Positions 3,660 to 56,176 of a DNA stretch of 64,000 bases are shown piece after piece. This DNA is from Callorhinchus milii (taxonomy: Eukaryota). Each line of letters starts with the position of its first letter. Within the stretch, counting starts at the first letter, position 1. The stretch lies in the NCBI RefSeq assembly GCF_018977255.1, contig NW_024704742.1, positions 74,712,001-74,776,000 of the forward strand, in the 5' to 3' direction. The notes beneath the pieces were generated by a model, which searched no databases, had not been told where the DNA came from, and was given only the letters and a program-made list of their open reading frames with translations. The position numbers and the translations under genes were made by a program.

Positions 3660-5410
3660 AACAAGTTGTTGCTTCTCAACTTCGCTCCTTCCTCTCCCGC
3701 CACTTCCTTCATGAACCCCCTCTAGTCGGGTTTCCGTGCCGCCCTCAGCATAGAAACAGCCCTGGTCAAAGTGACAAATGACATTCTGTCCATCTGTGAC
3801 CAGGGCTCCCTCTGCCTCCTGGTTCTCCTTCACTGTTCTGCTGCCTTCGACACCGTCGATCACTCTATCCTCATCCACGGCCTCTCCTCTCACCTCAAGC
3901 TTCACGGCTCTGTCCTTGACTGGTTCAGATCATACCTCTCACATCGCCTCCACTTCATCTCCACAAATGGTTTCTCCTCTAGCTCACGCAGCGTCTCATG
4001 CTGCGTTCCTCAGGGCTCTGTCCTTGGTCCCCTCCTCTTCAATATCTATATGCTCTCTCTTGGTGACATCATCCGCAGACATGGGGTCAACTTCCACATA
4101 TATGCAGATGACGCCCAACTGTACCTCTCTGTCTCCACCCTTGGCTCCAGGACCACTGACAGAATGTCTGTCAGGCATCAAGACCTGGTTGAGAGCTAAT
4201 TTTCTTCGGTTGAACGTCAACAAGACCGAGGCCCTCCTAATTGGCTCCACACCTCAGGCACTGACAGCATCACCATCCATAATAATAATAATAATCCTTG
4301 CATTTGATATAGCGCTTTTCACGTCGGGAGGACGTCCCAAAGCGCTTCACAGAACACACTGTAAAGTGAATTGACTGTATATTTGTGGGCGAACGCGGCA
4401 GCCAATTGCGCTCAGCAATGTCCCACAAACAGTCGTAGATTGAAAATGACCAATTTAATTATTGTTTTTGGTTTTTGGAGGGATTATTATTAGGCTCTGT
4501 GTGGAGTAAGGAAACTTGCCCAAGGTTTCGCGCTGACCTGCCTGGAATTGAACTCGGGTCTCTCGCTTGCAAAGCGAGTGCTCTAACCACTGAGCTACAG
4601 GACTCCACATGGTTGCACCCTCCACTTTACTAAGCCAATCCGTAACCTTGGGGTCTTGTTTGACCCACAACTATCCTTTCCAATCCACAGCTGTGCCATG
4701 ATCCGCTCTGCCTTCCCCCACCTCTGCAACATCGCCCGGCTCTGCCACTGTCTCACTCCGCAGGCCACCAAAACCCTCCTACCTGCTTTCATTACATCAA
4801 CAAGAACAACAACAACTTGGATTTATATAATGCCCTCCACGCCGGAAGGCGTCTCAGAGCTCAAGGCGTGACTATGCAAACTCTCTGCATGTCGGCCTCC
4901 CCAACTCCTCCCTCCATAGACTGCAGATCATCCAGAACTCTACAGCCTGTGTCCTCTCCCGCACCAGGCTCTGTGATCCTATTACCCCCATCCTCGCCCG
5001 ACTCCACTGGCTTCCCATCACACAGAGGATACAGTGCAAGTTCCTGGTCCTCATCTTCAAAGCCCTCCATGGTCTTGCTACCTCTGCGACCCTAACACCC
5101 TATCATCCTGCTCGCTCCCTCCGCTCAGCGGGCTCCAGCCTGCTTTACGTTCCCCTCCTCGCTCGCCCCACTATTGGCGAGCGGGCCTTCTGCCACTCTG
5201 CCCCCACCCTCTGGAACTCTACCCCGGAGTCCCTCCGCCTCACACCCTCCCTTGCCTCCTTCAATCTCAAGACCCACCTCTTTGACCGTGCTTTTGGTCT
5301 CCCTGCTTCCCCCCACACTTCACCCTCCCCGATCCCGTCTCCCAGCTCGGGTCGAAACTCTGTCCAGCACCTTGGGACGTCCTGCCAACGTGAAAGGCGC
5401 TATACAAATG
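3660..5410 (+). mobile_element. 5'-truncated L2 LINE (RT domain to 3' tail), interrupted by a SINE (4281-4608) and a tail fragment (~4798-4862)
   Basis: Translation gives [35 protein letters not shown]; frameshifted; ends in gggacgtcctgccaacgtgaaaggcgctatacaaatg. Confidence 0.92.
4281..4608 (-). mobile_element. Young tRNA-Ala-derived SINE (short form) nested in L2
   Basis: Head ggagtcctgtagctcagtggttagagc (A box), TGC anticodon-like arm, gagttcaattcc (B box), L2-type tail and (TTA)n; host L2 resumes seamlessly. Confidence 0.9.
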
Positions 5411-11866: not shown

Positions 11867-12174
11867 ATAATAATAATCCTTGCATTTCATATAGCGTTTT
11901 TCACGTCTTCTAGACGTCTCAAAGCGCTTCACAGAATATGCTGTAAGTGAATTGACCGTATATTTGTGAGTGAAACGCCGCAGCCAATTGCACACAGCAG
12001 TGTCCCACAAACAGTCGTGGATCGAAAATGACCAATTTATTATTGTTTTGGAGGGATTATTATCAGGCGTGTGGAGTAAGGAAACTTGCCCAAGGTTTTG
12101 CCCTGCCTGGAATTGAATCCAGGTGTCTCGCTTGCAAGGCGAGTGCTCTAACCACTGAGCCACAGGACTCCACA
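11867..12174 (-). mobile_element. tRNA-Ala SINE (short form)
   Basis: Full-length match to 4281-4608. Confidence 0.9.
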
Positions 12175-27905: not shown

Positions 27906-28014
27906 TAAACCTTAACAGATGGCTTATCAGTCTCATTTCTTTAAAATAGCTTTAAAAACTAAATTTTGTATTGCTGTTTCCGTAGTCTTTACTATCAATT
28001 TGTTTTATCTCCAG

Positions 28015-28090
28015 GAGTGGTAATGAAGAAAAACTCATGGCATTGCTTACTCCACTAAACGTGAACTGTCATGCAAGTGATGGAAGAAAG
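28015..28090 (+). CDS. TNKS: TNKS exon 5 (76 nt): [25 protein letters not shown]
   Basis: ctccag| acceptor, AAG|gtaaga donor (phase 0). Confidence 0.96.
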
Positions 28091-28769
28091 GTAAGAATAT
28101 GCATGTTTTTCAGCTATAATTACTTAAAACTGAAATGCAAGGGAAGAAAGCAAATGCAAATCTTAATTAATGGTTGACTCGTTATTTAAATTAAAAGTTT
28201 GTTCTGCTATTTGATCAGGCTTTTAACAACATGTAGATCTATTGTAGAAAAATAGCATTCATGCCCTGGAGAAATCAGTAAACTGGCACTGTTAGTACTG
28301 TGCTTTAGGCAATTATTTGAGTAAATTGTCAAAAATGCTTTTCCTTTCTCCCTCAAAAAGAGGGATGGACTATTTCAATTTAGTAATGATTCGCTATCCT
28401 TACAATAAACATCTCTGCTACTTACAGTAAGAAGATTTACATCAAACAACATAATCCATTCTGAGCATTTTGAAAATTGATTTATCACATGACATACAAA
28501 AGTCTAAATGTCACTTCTTGAAAAAATGATGATTTGCATGAGGTTCATTTAGAGTAGTGCATTATTGACATGTCAATTTCTAAGATGAATATCCTAACCA
28601 CCATTCATTGTTAGAAAAAGCTCCATCTATGATAGATGAAGATTAGGAATACAAATGAAGATCCAATCCCACTAAGTTCCATTATTGATAGTAGCATTGA
28701 TGTTGGCTGTGGATACAGTACCCCAGATTGCCCTGTCTGAGGAATATGAAAAAGCAAGGGGAGAGAGAA

Positions 28770-29560
28770 AAGACTATTTAGCCTATCACCCTTGCTCTTT
28801 CCACAGACTGACCATTATCGGGGCCTAGCTAGGTCATGTGAGACAGTGTCCTGCAGAAATACTCCCAGATCCTAAAGCAAAACTGCAGAATGTTTAGCCA
28901 TATGAATACCTTCCTACCCTTTGACCATTTATTTCACTAATCTCTATCATTACGTCCAATGATGTATTTGAGCATCTTAGTTTATACTATTCATTTAACT
29001 TCTTATTTTTTAAATTGTTGATTAAAACTACATTTTTCAAGTAAAGTCTAGGGTGAAAGGAGAGTATTGATTAATTTCTAATCTCAAGAATCTTTTCATT
29101 TTTAATTTATCCTCTGGTTCTGTGGTGACTGTCCAGTTAAATAGCCTACTTACATCTACATCATCTATGCCTACAAACCCCTCAATCATTTCTCCAATGA
29201 CTAGTTGATCTCTGCTAGTTTCTAATCAGGAATTAGTACCCTCATTACTATGATCATCCTTGTCTCTTTTCCAATGCATTAAGGTCCCTTCCAACGGTTT
29301 ACATGCATTATTCCAAATATAACCTGACCAGTAATCTATAAAACATTGGATTTGCATATTAATGCCCTTGAGATATACTCTCATTGATTTTGTTGGTGAT
29401 GACTTCATGATGACTCAACATTTTGAGTGATTGATCAATAACTACATCCATAGTTTCCTTTTTCTTCTCCTTTTACCTAAAGCACTTAATTATAGCACAT
29501 ATTTGATGATTACTGTTTCAAAATAATATGTATTACTTTACAGTTATAACAAGCTTTTAC
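28770..29560 (-). mobile_element. Highly decayed CR1 fragment
   Basis: tatcctctggttc, tttccaatgcattaagg..ttattccaaatataacctgacca resemble CR1 ORF2 antisense. Confidence 0.5.
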
Positions 29561-30497
29561 ACCTGAGCATATCTACTTCATTTTTCTAGTGCCCTTTGAA
29601 TACATTTATTGTCATTGCATTTGGCAGATCGATAACATCAGTAAATTTTGTAACATTTGATGTAGACTCTTTCAAATTGTTAGTGATTTGTGTGAATAGC
29701 AGGGGAACCAGAACAGAAATCCGTAGAGGTCTCCTGGTGTCTTCCCTTTTTCCCTGCAGAACTTGTGAAATGAGGAGACAAAAACAAATTAAAGGTTTTT
29801 AAAAAAATGTAAATACTACTTTTTTAAAAATGTAGTTGTTCCCCTAAAATTGAAGATGTTTGCAGCAAATGTTACTACTTTTGACTGGAACTTTCTATAA
29901 CGTAAGCAGATTTGAAGTTAATATTACTGCAGTTTCATTTCAAGATTACAATACATAAATTTCAGAAAATCAATCATTCATTGTGTTAGAATCTACCTGT
30001 TCTGATAACTATGGGTCAGCTTGGCTGACGTATATTTCATTTATAAAGTGCTTGCTGAATATGTTGTGTTGCTGTAATATTTTCAGTTGTATTTCATGCA
30101 CATAACAAAAATTGTGCTGTGTAAGCTTGTCCGCTTTGGAGAAATAATACAAGAATTTAAACATAGTGTAATAAACAGTACAAAGTTAAATCAAACTACT
30201 TTGCACAATTTCTTTCTGCTTTGATCGATGCTGCCATTTATCTGATGAATAAACCTGGTAATATGGTTCTGAAGCTTGTATTTTCTGTCAAGTCTTTCAC
30301 CATAAGTTTCGGCAGGTGGTTGCATGCCACATATTACACGATTACTTAGAGAAGATGTTTTTATTTTGTGCTAATTACTGATGTTATACATCTTTTATTT
30401 TACTATCGCGAATGTTTTTGGCAAAACCTAAGCTCAAATTTGCATATAGTCGTTCCTTTTACTAAATAAGCATTTTTTTTCATTTTTAACATTGCAG

Positions 30498-30545
30498 ACT
30501 GCAGAACCTCACCCCATCAGTCTACGATGTAGAAATGGAAATATG
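30498..30545 (+). CDS. TNKS: Candidate alternative 48-nt cassette exon (TAEPHPISLRCRNGNM) between exons 5 and 6
   Basis: Branch-like actaaat/ttttaac, T-rich tract and ttgcag| acceptor; 16 stop-free phase-0 codons; ATG|gtacac donor; lies in the phase-0 intron 5 in sequence without recognisable repeats. No transcript evidence available. Confidence 0.45.
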
Positions 30546-32269
30546 GTACACTTCTTATGCATTACGGTTGTTTACTGGTATTGCAGTGTCAAATCTATCG
30601 TCTGTGACTTGTTTAATTTTATATCGAAACGTAATGGATGTGGCTACAAGAGTAAATGGCTGTTTGCATAGTTTAAGAATTGCAACTTGCCATGTTGCCA
30701 GTCCGTTTCTTCCCTTCGTTCTTTCCTTTCTACTCTTGTCTCTTTCCTCTTGCAAAATTTCTCCTGATTTCTGCCAGCAATGCTAAATTTGCAGGGAATA
30801 TTGACCAATATGTTTGTAAATCAGGCTGCTACTTTAAAAAACAGTATGTTGCTGATATTGCACTGAAGTAACATGATTTCCTAACAAAATATCTTTAGAT
30901 TTCTGTTATGTATAAAACATTGAATTTCAAGATTCAGGTGACTAAAGCAAAGCTATCTATGAATTCAGTAAAAATGTAAATGGATGCTCAAATAATAGTC
31001 AAACTAATACAATTCCAAATACTAAGAGAGGTAATTACTAATTGAGGCTAATTTAATGAGGCTAATTTAACAATAAGCACGTCTTTGTCTTCTGACTCCA
31101 TGCTGGTGTTTGGTGAAGAGAGATGGCACAGAATCATCAAGGAGTACAGTTTTTAAAACTATCTTTCCCTGTCCACTTCCACTTTCTTTCTCTTTATATC
31201 TTTTAAATACAAATTAATAAAGAATCCTTAATAGATTGAAGTTACTAGTAATATTGTGGCCTTTCAGACTACATTGCTTTTTTTCTTTTGGTGCACTTTG
31301 CAGGTGCTTCTATAGCTTTAGGTTATCAAATAGAAGTTTAGAAATTGGGATCTAGAAGTAGCAAGGCCTCTATTTTTGTGTGCAGCACAATGTACAGTGC
31401 TGAATGGAGAACATAAAACGGTTTTCAATAAAAGTTCTCTATCTTCAATGGCAACCACTAATTGCTTTCAAAAGAGCAAACAACTTCCAGTCATAGAAAT
31501 ATAATTGTTAAAGCATTGGTAGTTTAGCTTTAGAAATCTTAGTGTTTGTGAATCTCTTTGTTTCTCTGTGAGAGAAACAAAGTTCAACTTTTCAATGTGT
31601 TTCAATTACCAACAATGCTCCAACCAAAAGAATGAATAAGCCATAGCCAAACCAATTAGTACTTATAGTACAAAATACTGATCTAGTATGTGAAGCATGA
31701 AGTATTCACATCTTTATTTGCTGCTTATAAATCTCCTGTGACAAAGAATCAAAAGATAGATGTGCTGTTGAAAATCAAAGGCTTATTATCTGGGTCAGAA
31801 TGGTGGACTCGGTTTCCTTTATAGCCATAACCACTGCTTGCTTTTTTNCTAATCTTTGGCAACTAATCAGAATTACTGCATGGAGCCTCATTTGAGTATT
31901 GATAAAGGAATTTTAAAGGAGAGAAAAAAANGCCATATAAAATACATTGCTAAATTTGCATTTTGTTGGCTGATCTGGAACAAAATTGATAGAAGCTATG
32001 AAAAACTCCATGGGTGAGAACATATTTCCCTTGAAGAGGTGCATAAGACATATTTTCCTTGAAGAGGTGCACTCCCTGCTCCTGCAGAACATCGAGCCAG
32101 TACCAGGAATGTCTCTCGAACAGTTTAGTGAACAACTTAGCTACATTGGTGCAAATAGGTTGTCACCATCATCCAGTCTAAAGCTGTCAAATTGAGACTC
32201 TTCTTGGAGCTGTAAAGCTTTGTGAATAGTTGCTTGGAGTCTACATGCCAACCATAACTGCCAGATGTT

Positions 32270-33050
32270 GGAATTATAGCAAAGGAGGAAGCTAATTGGT
32301 CCTTTGAGCCTAAACTGATGCTGACTGCTCTTAATCCTAATTCCCTGCTCTGTTCCCTTAATCTTTTATATTCTTCCTAGTAAAATGTTTACGTAATACC
32401 TTTTTAAATGTGGTTTTGGTCCATGTTTCAATGGCCACTTGGGCTAATGTGTTCCATAACCTTCTGCATGGAAAAAAAAGTTTTCTTCTAACCTCCCCCT
32501 TTTAGTAACAATCTTGACCTTATGCCACCTTGCTGATTTACCAAGCAGCAGGAATAATAACTTATGATCTACCTTCACAATACCCTTCTGAATTTTGAAG
32601 CCCTCTTAATTTTCTTTGTTCAGCTGTCCTCGTAACTGCAAGTTCTTATCATTGGTAACAACAGAGTGAACCTAAGTCGTACCCTTTCCATGCCTTTCTG
32701 TAATGGGACGTCATAGTGGTTCTGCCCCCCATACCATGTACCACACTTAAGCTTGTTAATTTCTGAGCTATGTTTTCTGAATTTGCTTCAACCCCAATTA
32801 CTGCATTGATCACCTGTCTGCGCACTGAACAGCAGGTACATCTTTGGAAGTTCCTGAATTACTCAGTTTGTTTTCATTTGGTACGAGACAACTATGTCCG
32901 TTTCCAAATGATTAATAAAAATGGCAAGTGATGGAAGTCCCAGTATTTTATCCAATAAATACCACCAACGAAATTTAAGAAATCCATTTGCCCTTGCTCT
33001 CTCTACCTTCTACCTTTCAACTATTCCATCAATTTACCTATATTATTAAG
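32270..33050 (-). mobile_element. Decayed CR1 fragment
   Basis: gttccataacc..aaaagttttcttctaacctcccc..aattttgaag..ctcttaat antisense CR1 pattern. Confidence 0.6.
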
Positions 33051-33091
33051 TATCTTTTTTGTCAACTACTTACAATAAATATGGAGTAGTT

Positions 33092-33382
33092 TGGAGTCCT
33101 GTAGCTCAGCGGTTAGAGCACTCACCTCGCAAGTGAGAGACCTGGATTTGATTCCCGGCAGGGCGAAACCTTGGGCAAGTTTCCTTACTCCATATGCCTG
33201 ATAATAATCCTTCAAGAAAAAATAAATAAAAATAATAATTTGGTCACTCAATCCACGACTGTTTGTGGGACACTGCTGTGTGCAATTGGCTGTCAATTCA
33301 CTTCACAGTATATTCTGTGGAGCGCTTTGAAATGTCTAGAAGACATGAAAAGTACTATATTAAATGTAAGGATTATTATTAT
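33092..33382 (+). mobile_element. tRNA-Ala SINE (short form)
   Basis: Full head to (TTA)n tail. Confidence 0.9.
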
Positions 33383-35386
33383 ATTTTATAATGTTTGTCT
33401 TTGTTATAGTTTCTGTATTCATTGTATTGTTACTTTTTCTTTGTGTTTGATCAGCCCTCTTTTTGTTTCATATTAACATCGCCCACGATTTTAACTGCCA
33501 ATTTCTCCTGATGTGGATACCTTATAAAATGCTTTCTGAAGAAAATACAAACATGCAACTTCAATTACATCTCTTCCCATCAACACATCTTTGATGCCCT
33601 GAAAAATAAATGAGTAAAACTGATCCTCTTGGATCAATTCCTGATCCATTTTAAGGATTTACAAATTCCATCCCCAATTATGGTCTTGAAGTTCACCACA
33701 ATTGAGATAAGACTAATTGAACTGTAATTCCATGTTTAATCCCTTTTTGAACATTTATCACCCTCTAGTCCTTTGATACAATAATCTTTTCATCTTCATT
33801 TTTTTTAAAAAAAGGATAGTGGCCAATCTCCTCAATTGTCTTTCAGTATCCTGGGCCGCTTACTATCTCTTGGTTTTACTTTTAAGCTCTTTGGCTACTT
33901 TTTTGTAGTTTGCATTGCAATCTTTAGCTGCAGTTTGTTAACTTTCATGACTTGCTCTGATTGTCCTACACCAGATTTCACCTTCCTGTGTATCAAGCAA
34001 CTCTTAAGAGAAGGGAGTTTCTCTTTGTGCCCTGGCCAACAATCCCCCAAATAAAATTAATCATTCTCTTCAAGGCTGCTTTTGGGATATTGCTGTGCAC
34101 AAATTAGTTGTTGAGTTCGCCAACAAAACACAGTCACCGCACTCTACATTATTATCCCGTGAAGCACTTTAGGATGTCCTCTGGGAGGTATACCAAATTG
34201 ACGGAATATTATTATCTCCCATTCTTTATTATTTTAGATTGATTGCTTTGGCTCTCAAATGATCCCATCTAATTTATAATAACCGCTTACTTTATAAGTG
34301 TTTGTAACATTATAACAACCTGTGCTATTTTTAATGTTGATTACCAATCTTTTTTCATTCCATTTAGGCTTTCTAACTTCCTATTTGCTTCTCTAAATGT
34401 TTTACATTTTTCATTATTTTCTTATGTATAATCAACTATCTCTCAAATGTTACCTTTGTAAACTAATTTTTTTCTGTTTTCCCCATTTAATAATTAGACC
34501 TTTAATGTACCCATTTAGTCTTAGTAGCATACATTTAACTCGTCCCTTACCCATCTCATTTAAATATCTCCAATTTCAAGTATGCAGTTTCATTCGGTAT
34601 CTTTCTAACCAGGTTATGTAGGCTAAGTCTCCTTCATCCCTTTGAAATCTGCTTTCTTGATCTATGTTTTTATCTTATCTCACCATGAATGTTGTAGGTT
34701 ATGATCATTATTTTTATTCTATCCTTTTCAAGCAAACCAATGTAGTTGGTTTGATTGTTCAGCAGTAGATTAAGAATTGAGACTTTGCTTGTGAAAATAA
34801 TATTTGTGCTAGATGTTGGAGGTAAGCAGGGGTAGCTAATATGAACACACAATTGCTTTGCGTAAATAGAACGCTCTAATTTTTCCAATTTACTGATGAC
34901 TGTGGTGTGGTTTGCACATTATGGGTATAATTTCACGGATTCATAAATCATGCAGCTTCAACTTTGCTTTTAATCAATTACCTTTAAAATTTGCTTAATC
35001 ATTGGCTAAAAGCACTGGAATGTTATGCAAGTCCTGAGACTTTAAAATGAATATTGAGCAATCCCTTCAGTAATTTGAAGAAATCAATTTCAAGCAGATC
35101 AGTTCAGCAACAGTAACTTGTATTCTTAATAAGTATTAACAAAACACGATGTGGAAGATATCACATGAAAACGACATGATATCTTCATGAATTGCTGATT
35201 ATGCGTTTTTTAAGAACTTGAGTTGAATGATTTCCTTTCTGGATTTAAAAATGGTGAGGTCGAAGTTCATCAATGCATCCAATTTTCTTTAGATACTTTC
35301 CAAGCTAGTACTTCAAATACACTCTTCATTCAACTAAGAGAATGGAAACTTTTTAAAACAATTGTTGGAATATAGAAACAGGAGTC

Positions 35387-35704
35387 ATAATAATAATAAT
35401 CCTTGCATTTGATATAGCGCTTTTCACGTCTTCTAGACGTCCCAAAGCGCTTCACAGAATATACTGTAAAGTGAATTGACTGTATATTTGTGGGCGAACG
35501 CGGCAGCCAATTGCGCATAGCAATGTCGCACAAACAGTCATGGATTGAAAATGACCAATTTATTATTGTTTTGTTTTGGAGGGATTATTATTAGGCGTGT
35601 GGAGTAAGAAAACTTGCCCAAGGTTTCGCCCTCTGCCTAGAATTGAACTCAGGTCTCTCGCTTGCAAAGCGAGTGCTCTAACCACTGAGCTACAGGACTC
35701 CACA
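35387..35704 (-). mobile_element. tRNA-Ala SINE (short form) inserted into a CR1 3' end, probable TSD ggagt
   Basis: Full-length copy; flanks gaaacaggagt / ggagtaggccattcag. Confidence 0.9.
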
Positions 35705-35708
35705 AAAT

Positions 35709-36005
35709 GGAGTAGGCCATTCAGCCGCTTGAATGTTCCCTTGAAAGCTCTGAGACACTAACCCGCGTGGAGGGTGCTATATAAGTGTAAGTTGTTGTTG
35801 TTGTCCCGCCATTCTATAAGATCATGGCTGATCTGTACCTCAACTCTAATTACCCGCCCTTGTCTCATATCCATTGGTGCCCTGACCAAACAAATATCTA
35901 TCCACCTCAGTCTTAAAAATTTGAGTGAATCCGGAATCAACAGCCTTTTGGGGAAGAGAGTTCCAGATTTTCACTACCCATTGGGGGAAAATCTGCCTCC
36001 TGTTT
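35709..36005 (-). mobile_element. CR1 3' fragment (host of the SINE above), itself interrupted by a + strand retro-tail at ~35735-35803
   Basis: gtaggccattcagcc..ccgccattc..aagatcatggctgatctg..gagagttccagattttcactacc. Confidence 0.8.
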
Positions 36006-36589
36006 TCACTCCTAAATTACACTTTTGTTTGCATGAAAATTAGCCATTTCTCACTGAGATTGGTCATGCATGCTTACCCATGTTTACACACTAGATTGAA
36101 GATTCACGTAAGACCTCCACACAATGCATTAGGCTTTTATGCTCAGCCTTTATTTTTGTCCATCCCCTCTTTTATGGTCACCCTGGCTGTGAAATATTGC
36201 AAATTTGTAGTCTTTTCTTTCCTCTTCCTTGCTCCCCATTCCTTTTCCCCTACCCAACAGGAACCGTCTATCATCTAAGCCACTTTGGAGACGAGAAGAG
36301 GTCACGAGTGAGTCTACTGTACCATTCTATGCAGCTTCCTGAACGTGGTCCTTTTGTGTTATTGGTGCCAACACTTTAACATTGATGTCCGATATTCATT
36401 TTATGGGGCAGGATCACTGTTGCTATGATGTCCAGTGATTGTGTATTCCAATTGTTCATAGCAATTAACTTAAGTTTGGTTCAGATCTGTACAGTGTTTC
36501 TATCAAGAGTAGGACTATTAATGCTATCGTGCTCAATTATAAGATTAGGTATAAGACAACCAATCTTGTGCTTAATTCCTATATCCACT

Positions 36590-39072
36590 CCTCTCAATGC
36601 CCTTGCTTCCCTCACTTCCTGAACCATCTCCTACTCACGAAAGTCACCACGGTATATCAGTCACCTCTGCTCCCGTAAGGCACAGGTGTGTGACCCTGAA
36701 TGTACCTACTTTAAATCCAACCTAACGGTCCATTGGCAGATCTGGCTGGACCTTATCAAATCTTACTGCTCCGCCCTCGCCTCATTAAACCCAGGTTCCT
36801 CTTCTCCATCACGAACCGGCTCCTCTGCCCACCCGCTCACGCCTTGCCCATCCTCACCTCCAATGCCAACTGGGAGGCAATGCTGGACTTTCTCAAAACC
36901 AAAGTTGAGGGGATCCACTCAGCGGTCTCTGCCCTTCCATCTACTACCCTCTCCATTTCTCCCCCTCACACCCTGGCCCCTACAAATCCCTCTTTCCATA
37001 CCTTCGATCCTGTCTCCCACTACTCTCTCAGCATCACTATAATCTGCATGAAACCAACCACCTGCTCCCTCAACCCCATCCCTGAATGGCCTATTCCTGT
37101 TTCTATGTACCAACAATTAGTTTCTAAAAAGTTTCCATTCTCTTAGTTGAATGAAGAGTGAATTTGAAGTACTAGCTTGGAAAGTATCTAAAGAAAGTTG
37201 GATGCATTCTGTGCTACCCGCAGCACTGAAACAGCTCTGGTCAAAGTAGCAAATGACATTCTGCCCATCTGCGACCAGGGCTCCCTCTGCCTCCTTGTCC
37301 TCGTTGACCTCTCTGCTGCCTTTGATACTGTTGACCACTTTATCCTCCTCCATCGCCTCTCCTCTCACCTCACCTTCATGGTTCTGTTCTTGAATGGTTC
37401 AGATCGTACCTCTCACACCGCCTCCACTTCATCTCTACACAGTTTCTCTCTAGCCCCCGCACCATATCGTGCGGCATTCTTCAGGGCTTTGTCCTTGATT
37501 CCCTCCTCTTCAATGTCTATATTCACAAACAACAACAACAACAAAATTACATTTATAGAGCACCTTTCATGTCGGGAGTAAGTCCCAAAGCGCTGAACAG
37601 TCTAGTATTGGGGCCCGAGCATGGGGGAGGGGTGGTGTAGGGGTCAGGGAAGGCAGAGAGGTGGGAGGGAGACCAAAGGCATGGTTGAAGAGAAGGGTCT
37701 TGAGACTGGCCTTGAAGGAGGCAAGGGAGGGAGCGAGGCGAAGGGACCGTGGGATGGAGTTCCAGAGTGTGGGGGCAGAGAGGCTGAAATCCCGGCCACC
37801 GGTGGTAGAGCGGCTAGGGAGGGAGACATGGAGCAGGCCGGAGCCCGATGAACGGAGTGAGCAGGCAGGTTGGTAGGGAGTCAGCAGGTCAGAGAGGTAG
37901 GAGGGGGCAAGGCCATGGATGGCCTTAAAGGTGAGGATGAGGATCTTGAACTCGATTCTCTGAGGGATGGGGAGCCAGTGGAGTCGGGCGTGGGTGGGAG
38001 TCATGGAGTCACGGAGCCTGGTGCGTGAGAGTACACGAGCTGCAGAGTTTTGGATGATCTGCAGCTTGTGAAGGGAAGAGTTGGGAAGGCCGATGAGGAG
38101 GGAGTTCCCGTAATCGAGCCTTGATGTGACGAATGAGTGGGAGGTTGTTTCGGCAGCCTGAGGGGTGAGGCAGTGGCGGAGTCTGGCAATGTTGCGGACA
38201 TCAAGTCCTAGATGAGAGCTAACTTTCTTCAGCGGGACGTCAATCTGCAAGCCCGAGGCCCTCTTGATTGGCTTCCTTCAGCGCTGCCACACCTCAGGAG
38301 CTGACAGCATCGCAATCCGTGGATGCACATTCCACCTTACTAAGCCAGTCTGGAACTTGGCATCTTGTTTGACCCTCACTTATCCTTTCCAACCCACATC
38401 TGTGCCATGACCTGCTTTGCCTTCCCCCATCTCCACAACATTGCCCGGCTGCTTCACTGTCTCACACCACAGGCCGCCAAGACCCTCATACACGCATTCA
38501 TAACATCCAGGCTTGACTACGCAAACTCCCTGCTTGTCGGCCACCCCATCTCCTCCCTCTGTAGGCTGCAGAACATCCAGAACTCTGCAGCCCGTATCCT
38601 TTCCCGCATCAGGCTCCGTGACCCTATCACCCCCATCCTCGCACGACTCCACTGGCTTCCCATCACTCAAAAAATACAGTTCAAGATCCTGGTCCTCATC
38701 TTCAAAGACCTCCGGGACCTTGCTATCCCCTACTTCTGCGACTTCCTAACCCCCTACCATCCTGCTCGCTCCGCTCAGCGTGCTCCAGCCTGCTTAATGT
38801 CCCCCGCTCCACCATCAGCCACTCTGCCCCCATCATCTGGAGCTCCATCCCGCAGTCCCTCCGCTTCGCCCCCTCCCTTGTGTCCTTCAAGACCCGTCTC
38901 AAGACCCTCCTCTTCGATCGTGCTCTCGATCACCCTTCTTCCCCACCCCCCCCACCCCCACCCTCCATCATCTCCAATTCCGACCCCCAGCTCGGGTCTG
39001 AAACACTGACGGTCCAGCGCCTCGGGACGTCCTCCCGACGTGAAAGGCACGATACAAATGTAATTTTGTTAT
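36590..39072 (+). mobile_element. Long rearranged L2 LINE (host) with internal deletions, an inverted templated insert (37082-37208) and a nested antisense L2 (37526-38200)
   Basis: MKPTTCSLNPIP / [25 protein letters not shown] / SRLDYANSLL..QNSAARILS..LHWLP; 3' tail at ~39015-39072. Confidence 0.9.
37526..38200 (-). mobile_element. Nested antisense 5'-truncated L2
   Basis: Minus-strand ORF RNIARLRHCLT..SRLDYGNSLL..LHWLPIPQRIEFKIL..APTLWNSIP..FKASLKT; CAA tail at 37526. Confidence 0.93.
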
Positions 39073-39702
39073 AAATGTTTGCAAGATAGTTTGGGAAAGG
39101 TTTTAGAAATATCTTCAGGGGAAATTTATCTCAACACAGAAATACCTTGTCAAAGGCATTTAAAATGTTCCCTCGAGTTCAGAACTGTGTTAAATGAGGT
39201 TTATTTTTCACAAGCATCCTGTTTGATCTATCACAACAAGCTGCATTCACTGAAAATATTTTGTGGAACAAGGAAGTCCTGAAGTTTAGTGGTTTGATGT
39301 ATAATTTCAGCAGTTCTCTATGACTTCAGAATAACTGCAGAATTGACTATTTCCAGGCAGTGACTGCTTATGCAAAGGCAACAAGATGTTCCGTTTTGAA
39401 TTAGTTTTACCCATTGCAATTCCTGTGGAAATCTCAAGACAGGATTATTCTCTATTTTTAGGAGGTTGTCGTTTGTAGCCAAAAAGTTTCACTGTTCTTG
39501 ATGGGGAAGAGGAATTTAATTGAGCTTCTGTGAATCGTTCCTCTGATGTATATTTTTAAGATGCTTTATACAGTAAAATATCCACAACCTTAAAAGATAG
39601 GTAATCCTTAGGCAACAAAAGAGTCAAGTATTATGAAGTTTAAGGACAGTGCAGGAAATATTTTTCACATAGAATATATTCAACATCTGGAAGGAGTTAA
39701 AA

Positions 39703-39810
39703 TAATAGTAAGCCTTGTATTTGATATCGCGCTTATCACATTGGGAGAATGTCTGAAGCGCTTCAAAAGATTTACTGTAAAGTGTAGTGACAGTGTATTT
39801 TGTAAGCAAA
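39703..39810 (-). mobile_element. SINE 3' fragment
   Basis: ccttgtatttgatatcgcgcttatcac..aagcgcttca. Confidence 0.65.
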
Positions 39811-40404
39811 CTAACTATTTTGGAAGATTGCTCAAGCCGTAGACATTGGACTTGAGAAACATTGTGATGCTTTAATTGAAAGCAAGAGTTGATATTCTGG
39901 AAGGATGATATCAAATGGATTGGAAAGTTATATAATAGTATCTGATGTATATCTTATAATAGTTGCCTCTATTTATTCATCTGAACTCGTGAAATGGGGA
40001 AATGTGCTAACCTAGTTGTGCTACTTTACAAAGATTTTTAATTTTGCAAAGAAGAATACTTGCTCTCGTGGTGCAGGAAGTTGACATGTTTTGTCACTTC
40101 CAGCTCGCTGCTCATGTTTTGTGATGCATAGGTAGTGCTGCTGAGATCACTTTGTAAACAAAGCTTTTTTTTGCATTGGCAGTGAGCAGGAAGTGACGTT
40201 AATTGTAACCTGATGAGCCAGAACTCTCTTTAAAGTGGGGGTTGGACTCGGAGCAGTGTTTTATATCGGGGTTGTCCGATACCAATTTCTTATATGATTG
40301 AACTCAAAAAAACTGCATGTGTTCCTTCTACTAGAAATTAGTGTTAGAGGGGGAGAAGGGGTCCTTTCCTTTCAATCTTCGACTATTATTTTCTTAGTAA
40401 AAAA

Positions 40405-40820
40405 ACCCGCTGAGAGGAGGGAGCGGGCAGGTTGGTAGGGGGTTAGAAGGTTGCAGAGGTAGTGGGGGAGCAAGGCCGTGGAGGGCTTTGACGGTGAGGA
40501 CCAGGATCTTGAACTGTATCCTCTGTGTGATGGGAAGCAGTGGAGTTGGGCAAGGATGGGGGTGATGGGGTCGCAGAACCTGGTGTGGGAGAGGACACAG
40601 GCTGCAGAGTTCTGGATGATCTGCAGCCTAAGGAGGGAGGAGTTGGGGAGGCCGATAAGCAGTGAGTTGTCGTAGTCAAGCCTAGATGTTATGAACGTGT
40701 ATGAGCGTTTCGGCGACCTGCGGTGTGAGTCAGTGGAGGAGCCGGGCGATGTTGCGGAGGCGGGGGAAGGCAGAGCAAGACATGGAAAGATATGGGGTAG
40801 AAAGGATAGTTGAGAGTTAA
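40405..40820 (-). mobile_element. L2 fragment
   Basis: FITSRLDYDNSLLIGLPNSSLLRLQIIQNSAA. Confidence 0.88.
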
Positions 40821-40984
40821 TGTACTTTACTGAAAAATGATGTGTGCAAAATTGCCCCGTTATTACTTTAGCAATTGGGTACACACGCAATTTAGCATAC
40901 CGCCATACAAAAAAGTCTATAACCCGGTCCATCATCTCTTCACTGGTAAAGGGAAAGTGCTAAAATGTGAAAAGAATTTTAGGC

Positions 40985-41640
40985 TTTATAAATTGGGCCA
41001 TTACAAGAGCAAAGGAGTGATGTTAATTTGTGGGAAAAAAAGTCAGGAGTATTGAATTCATTTTTGGAAAAGAATCCTTTTATGGAGTCATAATCACAGA
41101 GTGAATAATGGGGATTCATGATGAATCAACTAAGGCTAAGAAGTTTCAGTGAGAAGAGATTTGAAAAAATGGATTGTTTTTGCTTGAACAGATAAAATAC
41201 TAGACAATCGAGTGGAGGCTTTTAAAATTGTGAATAATTTTGGTGGGTTAAATGGAGAAACTATCCCCAATCATTAATGAATCAATAGCAGGTTTATTAG
41301 AATCATACAGCACAGAAGGAGGTCACTCGGCCTATCGTGCCGACTCTTTGAAAGAGTTATCCAACTAGTCCGACTCCCCCACTCTTTCTCCATAGCCATG
41401 CAAAACATTTTTTATGAAAAGGGATTTTTTTTAACACAAAGAATTATTAAGAATATGGAAACAGAGATAAATGGCTAGTCAAGCTGGATCCACAAAAGCA
41501 TCAATACGAGAATTGGATAAATGAAGAAAAAATAACTACTACCTACGTAGAAAGAGCAAGGGAATGAGGTTATAGCTTCATTCATGGAGCTGGCATTAAT
41601 ACAGATACAATTTGAATGGTCGCCTTCTGGCTGTAAACAT
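40985..41640 (+). mobile_element. Decayed CR1 3' region with a nested antisense CR1 tail (~41297-41405)
   Basis: gaggcttttaaaatt..ttttaacacaaaga..; nested agaatcatacagcacagaaggagg..gaaagagttatccaa. Confidence 0.65.
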
Positions 41641-43502
41641 TTGGTTTGATGGTGGTCATATGCAGTGAGAGGAGGCATTTAAAATATATCGTGAAACATT
41701 TCAGAATTTTATTGCTACAGTAAAATATTTGATCAATTTTAAGTTTATTTTTAAAGGTATGTTTTGTTTCAGTTCCATTTACCCCAAACCATATTACTGT
41801 GCAGATTTTCATTTTATAAGGTAGATCAATAATTTCAGCAATCCTTGGGATAAGCAGATCTTGAAAGTAAAATCTAGTTTAGGATTTATACTGTGGAGAT
41901 ATTACAAGTTGATGCTCTTGAGTGTGCAACATTTCAAACCCTTAGCTTTATAATTCAAAACATCAAAGGTACTGTAATATTCACCACTTAATTGTGTACT
42001 GTCTTTCTTTCCAAAGTACATTCAGCTGTATTAAACTCTTATAAAAGATAAAATTAAAGCTCAAGGTACTTTAAAAGGAGTTGACAAAGTAGCTTTACCA
42101 TTTTAAATCAAGACAACTCCTACGGTACTTTGATGCTGCAACCATTGTTTGTCTGACATTCTGAGATGTGTCCTTCTTTCTCAAAATGTGCATTTTCGGG
42201 CCACAAACTGGCAAGTGTTGCTATTCTGCAGTAAGAACCACTGGTCTGTTGATATAATAGAAATAAATTGTTTACTGGATCTTCCACATTATTGAGGTTT
42301 GTAAAACATCGTAGACAAAAGGTACTTCTGCAGTTACCTTTCCATTGGTCTGGTTGCAAGCTCATTATTAAATGTGCAGATATTGGTAGTTTTGACCAGG
42401 CTTTATTTGCATGTGCATGCACTTATACTTGGCCAAGTTAATTGGAAAAAACCTTAATCTTCTGATTAAGGCATGACATCTAATTCTTGCATAAAATATT
42501 ATTGAATATTTTATCCTTCAGTGACTGTAAGTAAAATGTTAGAACAAGCAATTATATAAATTTAGGCAAAGTGCACTGCAACAAATTTACCACTTGTTAA
42601 CTTTCCATTTTCATACTTTCATTTCATACCATTCATTCATATCAATGAAACTAACTGCAGGTGATTTTATAAAGCTAAATGCAGGAATGCAGCACCGGAA
42701 TTTAAATAATAGAATTATCCAGCATTTCAGGACATTCATGATCATTTAAAATCCTCTAAAATCCTTAATTCTAATATTCAAAACTTGAACTCTTGGAAGA
42801 AATGGCAGGGACAAATGTTGATTTATATTTTGGGTTGGTGGAAATCACTAAAATTGGCAAACATCAATATTTTTTTCCAATGTTCTCAAAAATAAATTTT
42901 CATTGCCAAACTTTTTTAAATCACTTTTTAATGATAACAACGACCAACTTCAGGAAGTCAGATTGCCACACATGTCACTTCCTATGTGTTGCGCTTGTGT
43001 CTGTACATAAGTAGGCCAGCTGCATCCATTGGCCTTTCTTGCTCTTAGTGCTCCTGCGCAGTATGTAGGAATTGATGTCTCTGATGACCTGACAACGTGG
43101 AAGGCATCCATTGTGGTCAAAATTTATAATTGAAAAATTAATTTAAAGTAATTGTTAATATCATTGTGAAAATCAGAAAAAATAATCGATTTTTATTAGG
43201 CTGATCTCTAACTTAATGGTCTAGATGCTGTTGGCGACATTCTGATGTGTTATCAAACTTTTGTAACTATCCATCATTCATATTTGACTGCTAATTAAAG
43301 TTAAATTGGAAGAGAACATCGGAATTGAGCTTACAAGAATTCAAGATTGTGCACAATTTTATGATCACGCTGTGACTAGCTGTTAGGAATTATTTCTTAC
43401 TGAAAGCATGATTCTCTCTTTAAAATCAACAATGTTCCCTTTGGTCAAATATAGCTTTATTGTTGCACTCATTTGTTTTTATTTTTCGTTGTTTACCTCC
43501 AG

Positions 43503-43597
43503 TCTACTCCTCTTCACCTGGCAGCTGGGTATAACCGTGTCCGGATTGTTCAGCTTCTTCTCCAGCATGGTGCTGATGTACACGCTAAGGACAAAGG
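43503..43597 (+). CDS. TNKS: TNKS exon 6 (95 nt): [32 protein letters not shown] (ARC2)
   Basis: ctccag| acceptor, |gtgagt donor. Confidence 0.96.
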
Positions 43598-50041: not shown

Positions 50042-50368
50042 TGTGGAGTCCTGTAACTCAGTGGTTAGAGCACTCACTTCGCAAGCAAGAGACTTGGGTT
50101 CGATTCCTGGCAGGGCGAAATGTTGTGCAAGTTTCCTTACTCCACATGCCTCCATTTACCTAGAGGCAAGTAGGTAATCGGTTGTTAGTCGATTGGCGGA
50201 TTGCTTTTCTGGGGGAAATAATTCCTTCAAAAAAAATAATAAACTAGTCACTTCAATCCGTGACAGTTTGTGGGACACTGCTGTGTGTAATTGGCTGCCG
50301 CGTTTTGCCCACAAAATATACAGTCAATTCACATGATAAGGCTCAATATCAAATGGACGGATTATTAT
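50042..50368 (+). mobile_element. tRNA-Ala SINE (long form, deletion in tail)
   Basis: Head with A/B boxes (gggttcgattcc), internal segment present. Confidence 0.88.
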
Positions 50369-55802: not shown

Positions 55803-56176
55803 GTGGAGTCCTGTAGCTTAATGGTTAGAGCATTTGTCTCACAAGCGAGAGGATCTGGGTTCAAATCCCAGCAGGGTGAAATGTTCGGCAAGTTTCCTTA
55901 CTCCATACGCCTCTGTTTATCTAGCAGTAAGTAGGAACCTCGTTATTATTCGATTGATCAATCGCTCTTCTATAGATAATAATTCCTTTATTAAAAAAAA
56001 GAATAATTTAGTCACTCAATTTTAACTGTTTGTGGAACACTGATGTGCACAATTGGCTGCTGTGTTTTGCCCACAAAATATACAATGAATTGAGTTTACA
56101 GTGCATTCTGTGAAGCGCTTTGAGACATTTGGAAGACGTGATCAGGCACTATATCAAATGCAAGGATTATTATTAT
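55803..56176 (+). mobile_element. tRNA-Ala SINE (long form, full length)
   Basis: Head, CORE-like box, internal segment, L2-type tail. Confidence 0.88.

Follow-up and report, generated by a model that had tools for sequence, protein, structure and literature searches.

Structure of the locus

The window, as the whole stretch of DNA analysed here is called, comprises 64,000 nt of Callorhinchus milii and carries exons of the gene for tankyrase-1 (TNKS1). Among 10 proteins tested, the C. milii protein XP_042200715.1 (P0128) is the best covered, with 883 residues in exact matches, and over the part present in the window it differs from the exons at junction residues only. Intron 5 contains a cassette exon of 48 nt (Table 1). 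The initial annotation had proposed this exon from a set of sequence features, and all of them (ACTAAAT, TTTTAAC, the T tract, the acceptor, the 48 nt, the donor, the second AG and TGCATG) lie where they had been placed. The TTGCAG acceptor ends at 30497 and is followed by 48 nt without a stop in phase 0. The donor, ATG/GTACAC, agrees with the consensus CAG/GTAAGT at 4 of 9 positions, against 7 of 9 for the donor of exon 5. Use of the second AG would start the exon at 30505, shorten it to 41 nt and shift the frame.

Table 1. Coordinates of the cassette exon and neighbouring features in the window
Feature	Position	Strand	Remarks
TNKS1 exon 5	28015..28090	+	Ends in ...ASDGRK; donor AAG/GTAAGA; phase 0; exact match to P0128 residues 213-237
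Longest self-repeat-free block, with the cassette exon inside	28322..33091		Self-BLAST, E 1e-4
TGCATG (RBFOX-type motif) upstream of the cassette exon	30321..30326	+	Not above background
Acceptor region of the cassette exon: branch-like ACTAAAT, T-rich tract, TTTTAAC, TTGCAG	30461..30497	+	Exon contig starts at the shared AG, 30496
48-nt in-frame cassette exon, TAEPHPISLRCRNGNM	30498..30545	+	Splits the ARC2 motif DGRK/STPLH after K
Donor of the cassette exon, GTACAC	30546..30551	+	Weak but used; junction contig to exon 6
TNKS1 exon 6	43503..43597	+	Start matches the junction contig

The surroundings of the exon had been described as poor in repeats, and this holds: the block around it, 4770 nt long, is the longest in the window without a self-BLAST match, a check that detects only repeats with a second copy inside the window. 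Such matches cover 25% of intron 5. No Rfam family overlaps the cassette exon, and the only Rfam matches elsewhere in the window are tRNA-like. There are six of these, all intronic (4533-4604, 12098-12169, 33095-33166, 35633-35695, 50047-50118 and 55807-55879), and they are likely to be the heads of tRNA-derived SINEs. Two tRNA-like elements, at 33092-33382 and 35390-35702, form an inverted pair. The downstream half of intron 5 also holds, at 37500-41000, a GC-rich repeat with nested inverted and direct copies that are 76-85% alike.

Transcripts and gene models

Contigs from 4 of 13 listed public runs, which are presumed to be RNA although none of the 13 is recorded as such, were compared with positions 27950-33000. 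In one putative RNA run (X1), a contig corresponds exactly to 30496-30545 at a depth of 173.7. Another contig of this run, at a depth of 152.6, covers 30516-30545 and then runs on for 29 letters that match 43503-43531 exactly. This is the junction from 30545 to 43503 that the initial annotation had predicted, found in 1 of the 4 runs. Intron contigs flanking the exon in the same run have depths of 6.6 and 22.7; contig depths give no inclusion level. The exon contig starts at the AG that is shared by the acceptor and the end of exon 5, as is expected if exon 5 joins there. Exon 5 itself has no contig cover in any of the 4 runs, and for this reason the upstream and the skipping junctions are unlisted; such blanks may come from the contig filter and are no evidence against these junctions. 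In a second run (X2), intron pieces are covered and the exon is not, and the remaining two (X9 and X10) gave no contig over these positions; here again the filter may remove pieces. Two earlier reservations about the exon are eased by run X1: the weak donor is in use, and the exon contig runs unbroken across 30505. On the continuity of this contig, the acceptor leading to 30505 was rejected as a main form; rare forms would be dropped from contigs.

The exon had been taken to be unannotated. This was wrong because NCBI models contain it: RefSeq models in 22 species have the exon, and among them XP_042200715.1, which matches the window, includes the 16 exon-encoded residues. It is the single NCBI model found for C. 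milii and represents the inclusion form, so that skipping in this species rests on the UniRef models P0047 and P0122, which are the skipping form. The chondrichthyan TNKS1 models called isoform X1 at NCBI (for example XP_042200715.1, XP_048382758.1 and XP_055488656.1) carry the same 16-residue insert at the same site and do not differ from the exon in sequence; they are automated and come without a tissue, regulatory or functional account. Skipping, too, is annotated in models. The exon-sized contig, the junction to exon 6, models with and without the exon and its conservation in chondrichthyans all bear out the proposal of a real in-frame cassette exon, whose sequence, frame, downstream junction, conservation and position are established.

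While the exon is already in automated catalogues, it is undescribed in the literature searched: no paper discussing it was found, most subscription papers being outside the search. The combination of tankyrase and microexon gave no paper, and among the matches listed for tankyrase and splicing none concerns the exon by title or opening of the abstract. The available parts of an evolutionary tankyrase paper hold no mention of an isoform or insertion (PMC9688111), and splicing is not mentioned in those of PMC5727255. The main text of one preprint has no tankyrase (10.64898/2026.09.05.749416); its supplements cover C. milii and may list the exon. The gene name tnks is absent from supplementary files of PMC12626420 (12 of 13 files), PMC9303857 (12 of 18 files) and PMC13281805 (2 of 2 files).

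Conservation in cartilaginous fishes

Conservation was compared at the level of peptides, in 470 proteins. The 16-residue peptide stands unchanged between DGRK and STPLH in 29 of the 470. It is present in every one of the 22 named chondrichthyan species whose TNKS1 was collected, which include sharks, rays, skates and a chimaera; one unnamed Logan record also carries it, and one of the 29 insert-bearing proteins has an extra 9-residue extension. Frame and length of the exon are kept in all 22 species. Thus, the conserved insertion frame that had been looked for in related species is there, with an identical peptide in 22 of 22. For 20 of these species there is a skipping model as well; the other two, Mobula birostris and Rhinoraja longicauda, have an inclusion model only. 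The exon is beyond chance, because its peptide recurs at one and the same site in 29 of the 470 proteins and the junction contig exists. TNKS1 as a whole is 97.4-97.9% identical among these fishes (5 pairs, 780 aa), so that the insert matches the constitutive ankyrin exons in conservation and does not exceed them. A protein search with the exon reading frame alone gave no candidate, which is a false negative, the peptide-bearing proteins appearing in another search.

The same site in other vertebrates

The same position of TNKS1 is also used for an insert in ray-finned fishes. STSQKML, or a close variant of it, is found there in phase 0 in 67 ray-finned proteins (P0050, P0076, P0166, P0174 and 63 others). 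It ranges over bichir, sturgeon, paddlefish, gar, bowfin and both teleost paralogues, and it is nearly invariant. In 17 of 18 species groups STSQKML is optional, showing as an indel of exactly 7 residues; indels of this length were not seen elsewhere. Like the shark exon, it is optional at the phase-0 TNKS1 site and begins with a residue carrying a hydroxyl (S in most ray-finned fishes, T in sharks). The two differ in length, 21 nt against 48 nt, and the shark and ray-finned inserts are not alike (protein shuffle p 0.41): intron and phase are the same, and sequence homology was not found. Intron 5 of this window has no in-frame STSQKML exon. The cassette exon was also considered as a frameshifted homologue of STSQKML and rejected, since the best DNA fit has 7 mismatches in 21 nt and 14 of 880 intron AG sites fit as well or better.

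In zebrafish, a 21-nt event of TNKS, DreEX0008971, is classed as a neural microexon (supplement of PMC12626424). Its PSI is 92.5 in neural tissue, 75.7 in muscle, 30.7 in ovary, 6.2 in liver and 1.9 in exocrine pancreas; in development it rises from below 5 at 8-16 hours to about 72 at 7 days (PMC12626424). The event is srrm3/4-sensitive, with a change of -24.9 in eMIC mutants, and its conservation label is NO_EV_ORTH, which we read as being without a human event (PMC12626424). STSQKML is probably encoded by DreEX0008971, to judge from the length; the proteins collected include no insert-bearing zebrafish tankyrase. Since the inserts of sharks and ray-finned fishes have no sequence likeness, the zebrafish tissue pattern serves as an analogy only.

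Of 145 tetrapod TNKS1 proteins, 138 are readable at the site. Neither fish insert occurs in any of these 138 models: 134 have no insert, and four, from three lizards and one frog, have unrelated ones, 13-57 aa long. From each of the large tetrapod clusters, which have up to 379 members, 15 were sampled, so rare tetrapod forms may be missed. The one lungfish and 11 lamprey models have no insert at the site. The unrelated inserts are 56-57 aa long in two lacertid lizards, 49 aa in Pogona and 13 aa in the frog, and others at the same site measure 22 aa in bowfin and 39 aa in Pseudorasbora (records P0334, P0344, P0341, P0349, P0163 and P0409). New exons may arise preferentially in intron 5.

One gar model may connect the two fish inserts. 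In Atractosteus spatula (MBN3319285.1, P0095), the 12 residues before STSQKML are similar to the final 12 of the shark insert, with a shuffle p of 0.0003-0.0007, the best of the 10 inserts compared; the frog 13-mer gives 0.03, a medaka 13-mer 0.05, and seven others more than 0.2. The 12-mer is in one GenBank model only, and Lepisosteus models are without it. This single model gives a hint that the gar 12-mer could be a relic of a shark-type exon, from an older two-exon state.

Regulatory motifs and the microexon class

The initial annotation had pointed to a UGC before the AG and to TGCATG as SRRM4 and RBFOX elements. Both motifs are present, but as evidence for these regulators they are near background, because TGCAG is also the acceptor of the constitutive exons 2 and 4, and TGCATG has 35 copies in the window, which gives a 15% chance of one within any 300 nt. 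The UGC at -5 shares letters with the CAG, which is also the case in constitutive exons 2 and 4, and the next UGC lies at -57. In the SRRM3/4 microexon context, the UGC stands between the pyrimidine tract and the AG, and neural microexons have a strong 5' splice site (preprint 10.1101/2024.09.17.613571). The microexon class is set at 3-27 nt, exons of 28-51 nt being kept as a separate class (PMC12626424). The shark exon resembles SRRM3/4-dependent neural microexons in being short, in-frame, deeply conserved and placed on a binding surface. However, its 48 nt are above the 3-27 nt of the class, its donor is weak (4 of 9) where a strong one is expected, and its near UGC overlaps the CAG. Neural regulation of the exon in C. 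milii, suggested by analogy with the zebrafish 21-nt exon, is unproven; the published case of SRRM3/4-dependent neural inclusion is the zebrafish event alone. Tissue-regulated inclusion of this optional exon is likely.

Position of the insert on ARC2

Four ARC pockets, similar to one another, select the substrates of tankyrase. ARC1, ARC2, ARC4 and ARC5 each contain the motif G-R-x-S-T-P-L-H once. In ARC2, the insertion point separates the residues equivalent to Q526 and S527 in TNKS2 numbering, so that R525 and S527 flank it; in the 1327-residue primate TNKS1 it falls between K369 and S370. The arginine equivalent to R525, which flanks the insertion point, presumably contacts tankyrase-binding-motif peptides. 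D521 and S527 belong to the central patch, where S527 bonds the Asp at motif position 5, and R525 is named in the same source for a docked fragment only (PMC6911004). The proposed location in the ARC2 hairpin at the binding surface is supported and can be given more exactly, as one residue before the central-patch serine (S527 equivalent). For AXIN, ARC2 is the strongest binder, and other ARCs bind it too (PMC5727255). The human and mouse structures of ARC2 with peptides, 3UTM (AXIN1), 5JHQ (IRAP), 5HKP (TRF1), 6CF6 (RNF146) and 6URQ (PAGE4), all represent the skipping form. Their sequence flanking the insertion point is identical to that of the shark protein, which has the same ARC1-3 fold in the model described below.

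A structure prediction of ARC2 with the insert, as the initial annotation had suggested, was run with AlphaFold2 on the skate isoform that has the insert, whose ARC2 differs from that of P0128 at 1 position, with 84 aligned sequences; a single-sequence fold (mean pLDDT 45) was discarded. All ARC2 helices are kept, at pLDDT of about 85-96 per block, and ARC1-3 superposes on 5JHQ with an rmsd of 1.6-2.7 A. Residues 149-167, which are DGRK and the insert, have pLDDT below 50; in an insert without alignment variation such a value is a mark of ignorance and not a sign of disorder or displacement. From the helices and the superposition, ARC2 is therefore predicted to fold with the insert, the hairpin and insert forming a loop of low confidence at the pocket rim.

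Two other roles of the peptide were considered and rejected. The insert and its flanks contain no R....G, which excludes a tankyrase-binding motif (consensus R-x-x-small-x-G; PMC5727255) that could act as a self-inhibiting decoy. A half ankyrin repeat is excluded by the T-P-L-H helix profile, which scores -16.8 against at least 7.4 in real repeats (shuffle p 0.19).

Possible function of the insert

On balance, we lean towards an effect of the exon on the ARC2 pocket. The insert would loop out between the equivalents of R525 and S527 and draw the hairpin off the central patch. The affinity of ARC2 for tankyrase-binding motifs would thereby be lowered or retuned, and ARC1, ARC4 and ARC5 would be unaffected. 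As AXIN binds most strongly to ARC2, inclusion of the exon would change which partners are favoured in the tissues concerned; these would most likely be nerve and muscle, as with the ray-finned 7-residue microexon. The exon is predicted to loosen or reshape the ARC2 pocket and not to unfold it. Changed or lost binding of AXIN is a putative consequence and is unproven; the fold is intact in the model.

A second explanation, to which we give a rather low probability, is that the insert is a tolerated surface loop. Motif binding would then stay intact, and the loop, for example through its Cys, Ser/Thr or basic residues, would present a fish-specific partner with a new site of contact or modification. 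The unchanged ARC1-3 fold in the model is consistent with this, as are the unrelated inserts of 13-57 aa that 4 of 138 tetrapod proteins have at the site, and a plain steric blocker would seem not to need all 16 residues to be invariant. A hydroxyl after RK is also kept, since the insert opens with T in sharks and, in most ray-finned fishes, with S; beginning with S or T, both inserts could stand in for the displaced serine and keep the pocket at least partly working. However, the insertion lies one residue before the central-patch serine, model confidence drops at DGRK itself, and the insert is without a tankyrase-binding motif. Moreover, two lineages with unrelated sequences at one site fit a positional effect better than a shared new ligand.

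It is improbable that the exon is near-constitutive in chimaeras, a fixed lineage-specific feature of ARC2 with no switch. The sole NCBI models found for C. milii and Rhinoraja do include the exon, and the skipping junction was not seen, though exon 5 is without contig cover. Against this, 19 elasmobranchs have paired models that differ by the 16 residues only, UniRef models of C. milii skip the exon, and its donor is weak. Similarly unlikely is a constraint on RNA or DNA, such as splicing signals or a conserved regulatory block with an incidental and merely tolerated peptide. In its favour are the location of the exon within the longest repeat-free block found in the window and the slow protein evolution of these genomes; against it, all 22 species preserve frame and length, the exon in run X1 is abundant compared with the intron, and no Rfam family overlaps the exon.

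Returning to the effect on the pocket that we prefer, the near-invariant optional inserts at one ARC2 residue in two fish lineages are natural variants for ARC2-specific tests. One splice position is under strong selection with unrelated sequences and is apparently missing in tetrapods. The reviews searched do not describe cellular biasing of one ARC pocket. The reach of the finding is limited, as automated catalogues already list the exon and it seems to be missing in humans.

All of this could be joined in a single scenario, which we put forward tentatively and hold to be doubtful. An early jawed-vertebrate splice switch of nerve and muscle would have tuned the strongest AXIN-binding site of tankyrase. 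It would have been kept as the 48-nt exon in cartilaginous fishes and as an unrelated 21-nt srrm3/4-sensitive microexon in ray-finned fishes, gar maybe having a relic in tandem, and both would have been lost in tetrapods. Such a switch might be a natural means of turning off ARC2 selectively, uncoupling tankyrase from Wnt control in differentiated cells.

Other optional segments of TNKS1

The protein comparison also brought up variable segments elsewhere in TNKS1. A 40-residue optional insert after DLETVK, at the start of ARC4, is common to Carcharodon and Cetorhinus (P0138, P0148 and P0029) and has no match within the window. In cyprinids, the models P0399, P0400, P0433, P0439 and P0442 omit the 32 residues of exon 3, at the end of ARC1, and this skipping of exon 3 is independent of the 7-residue insert.
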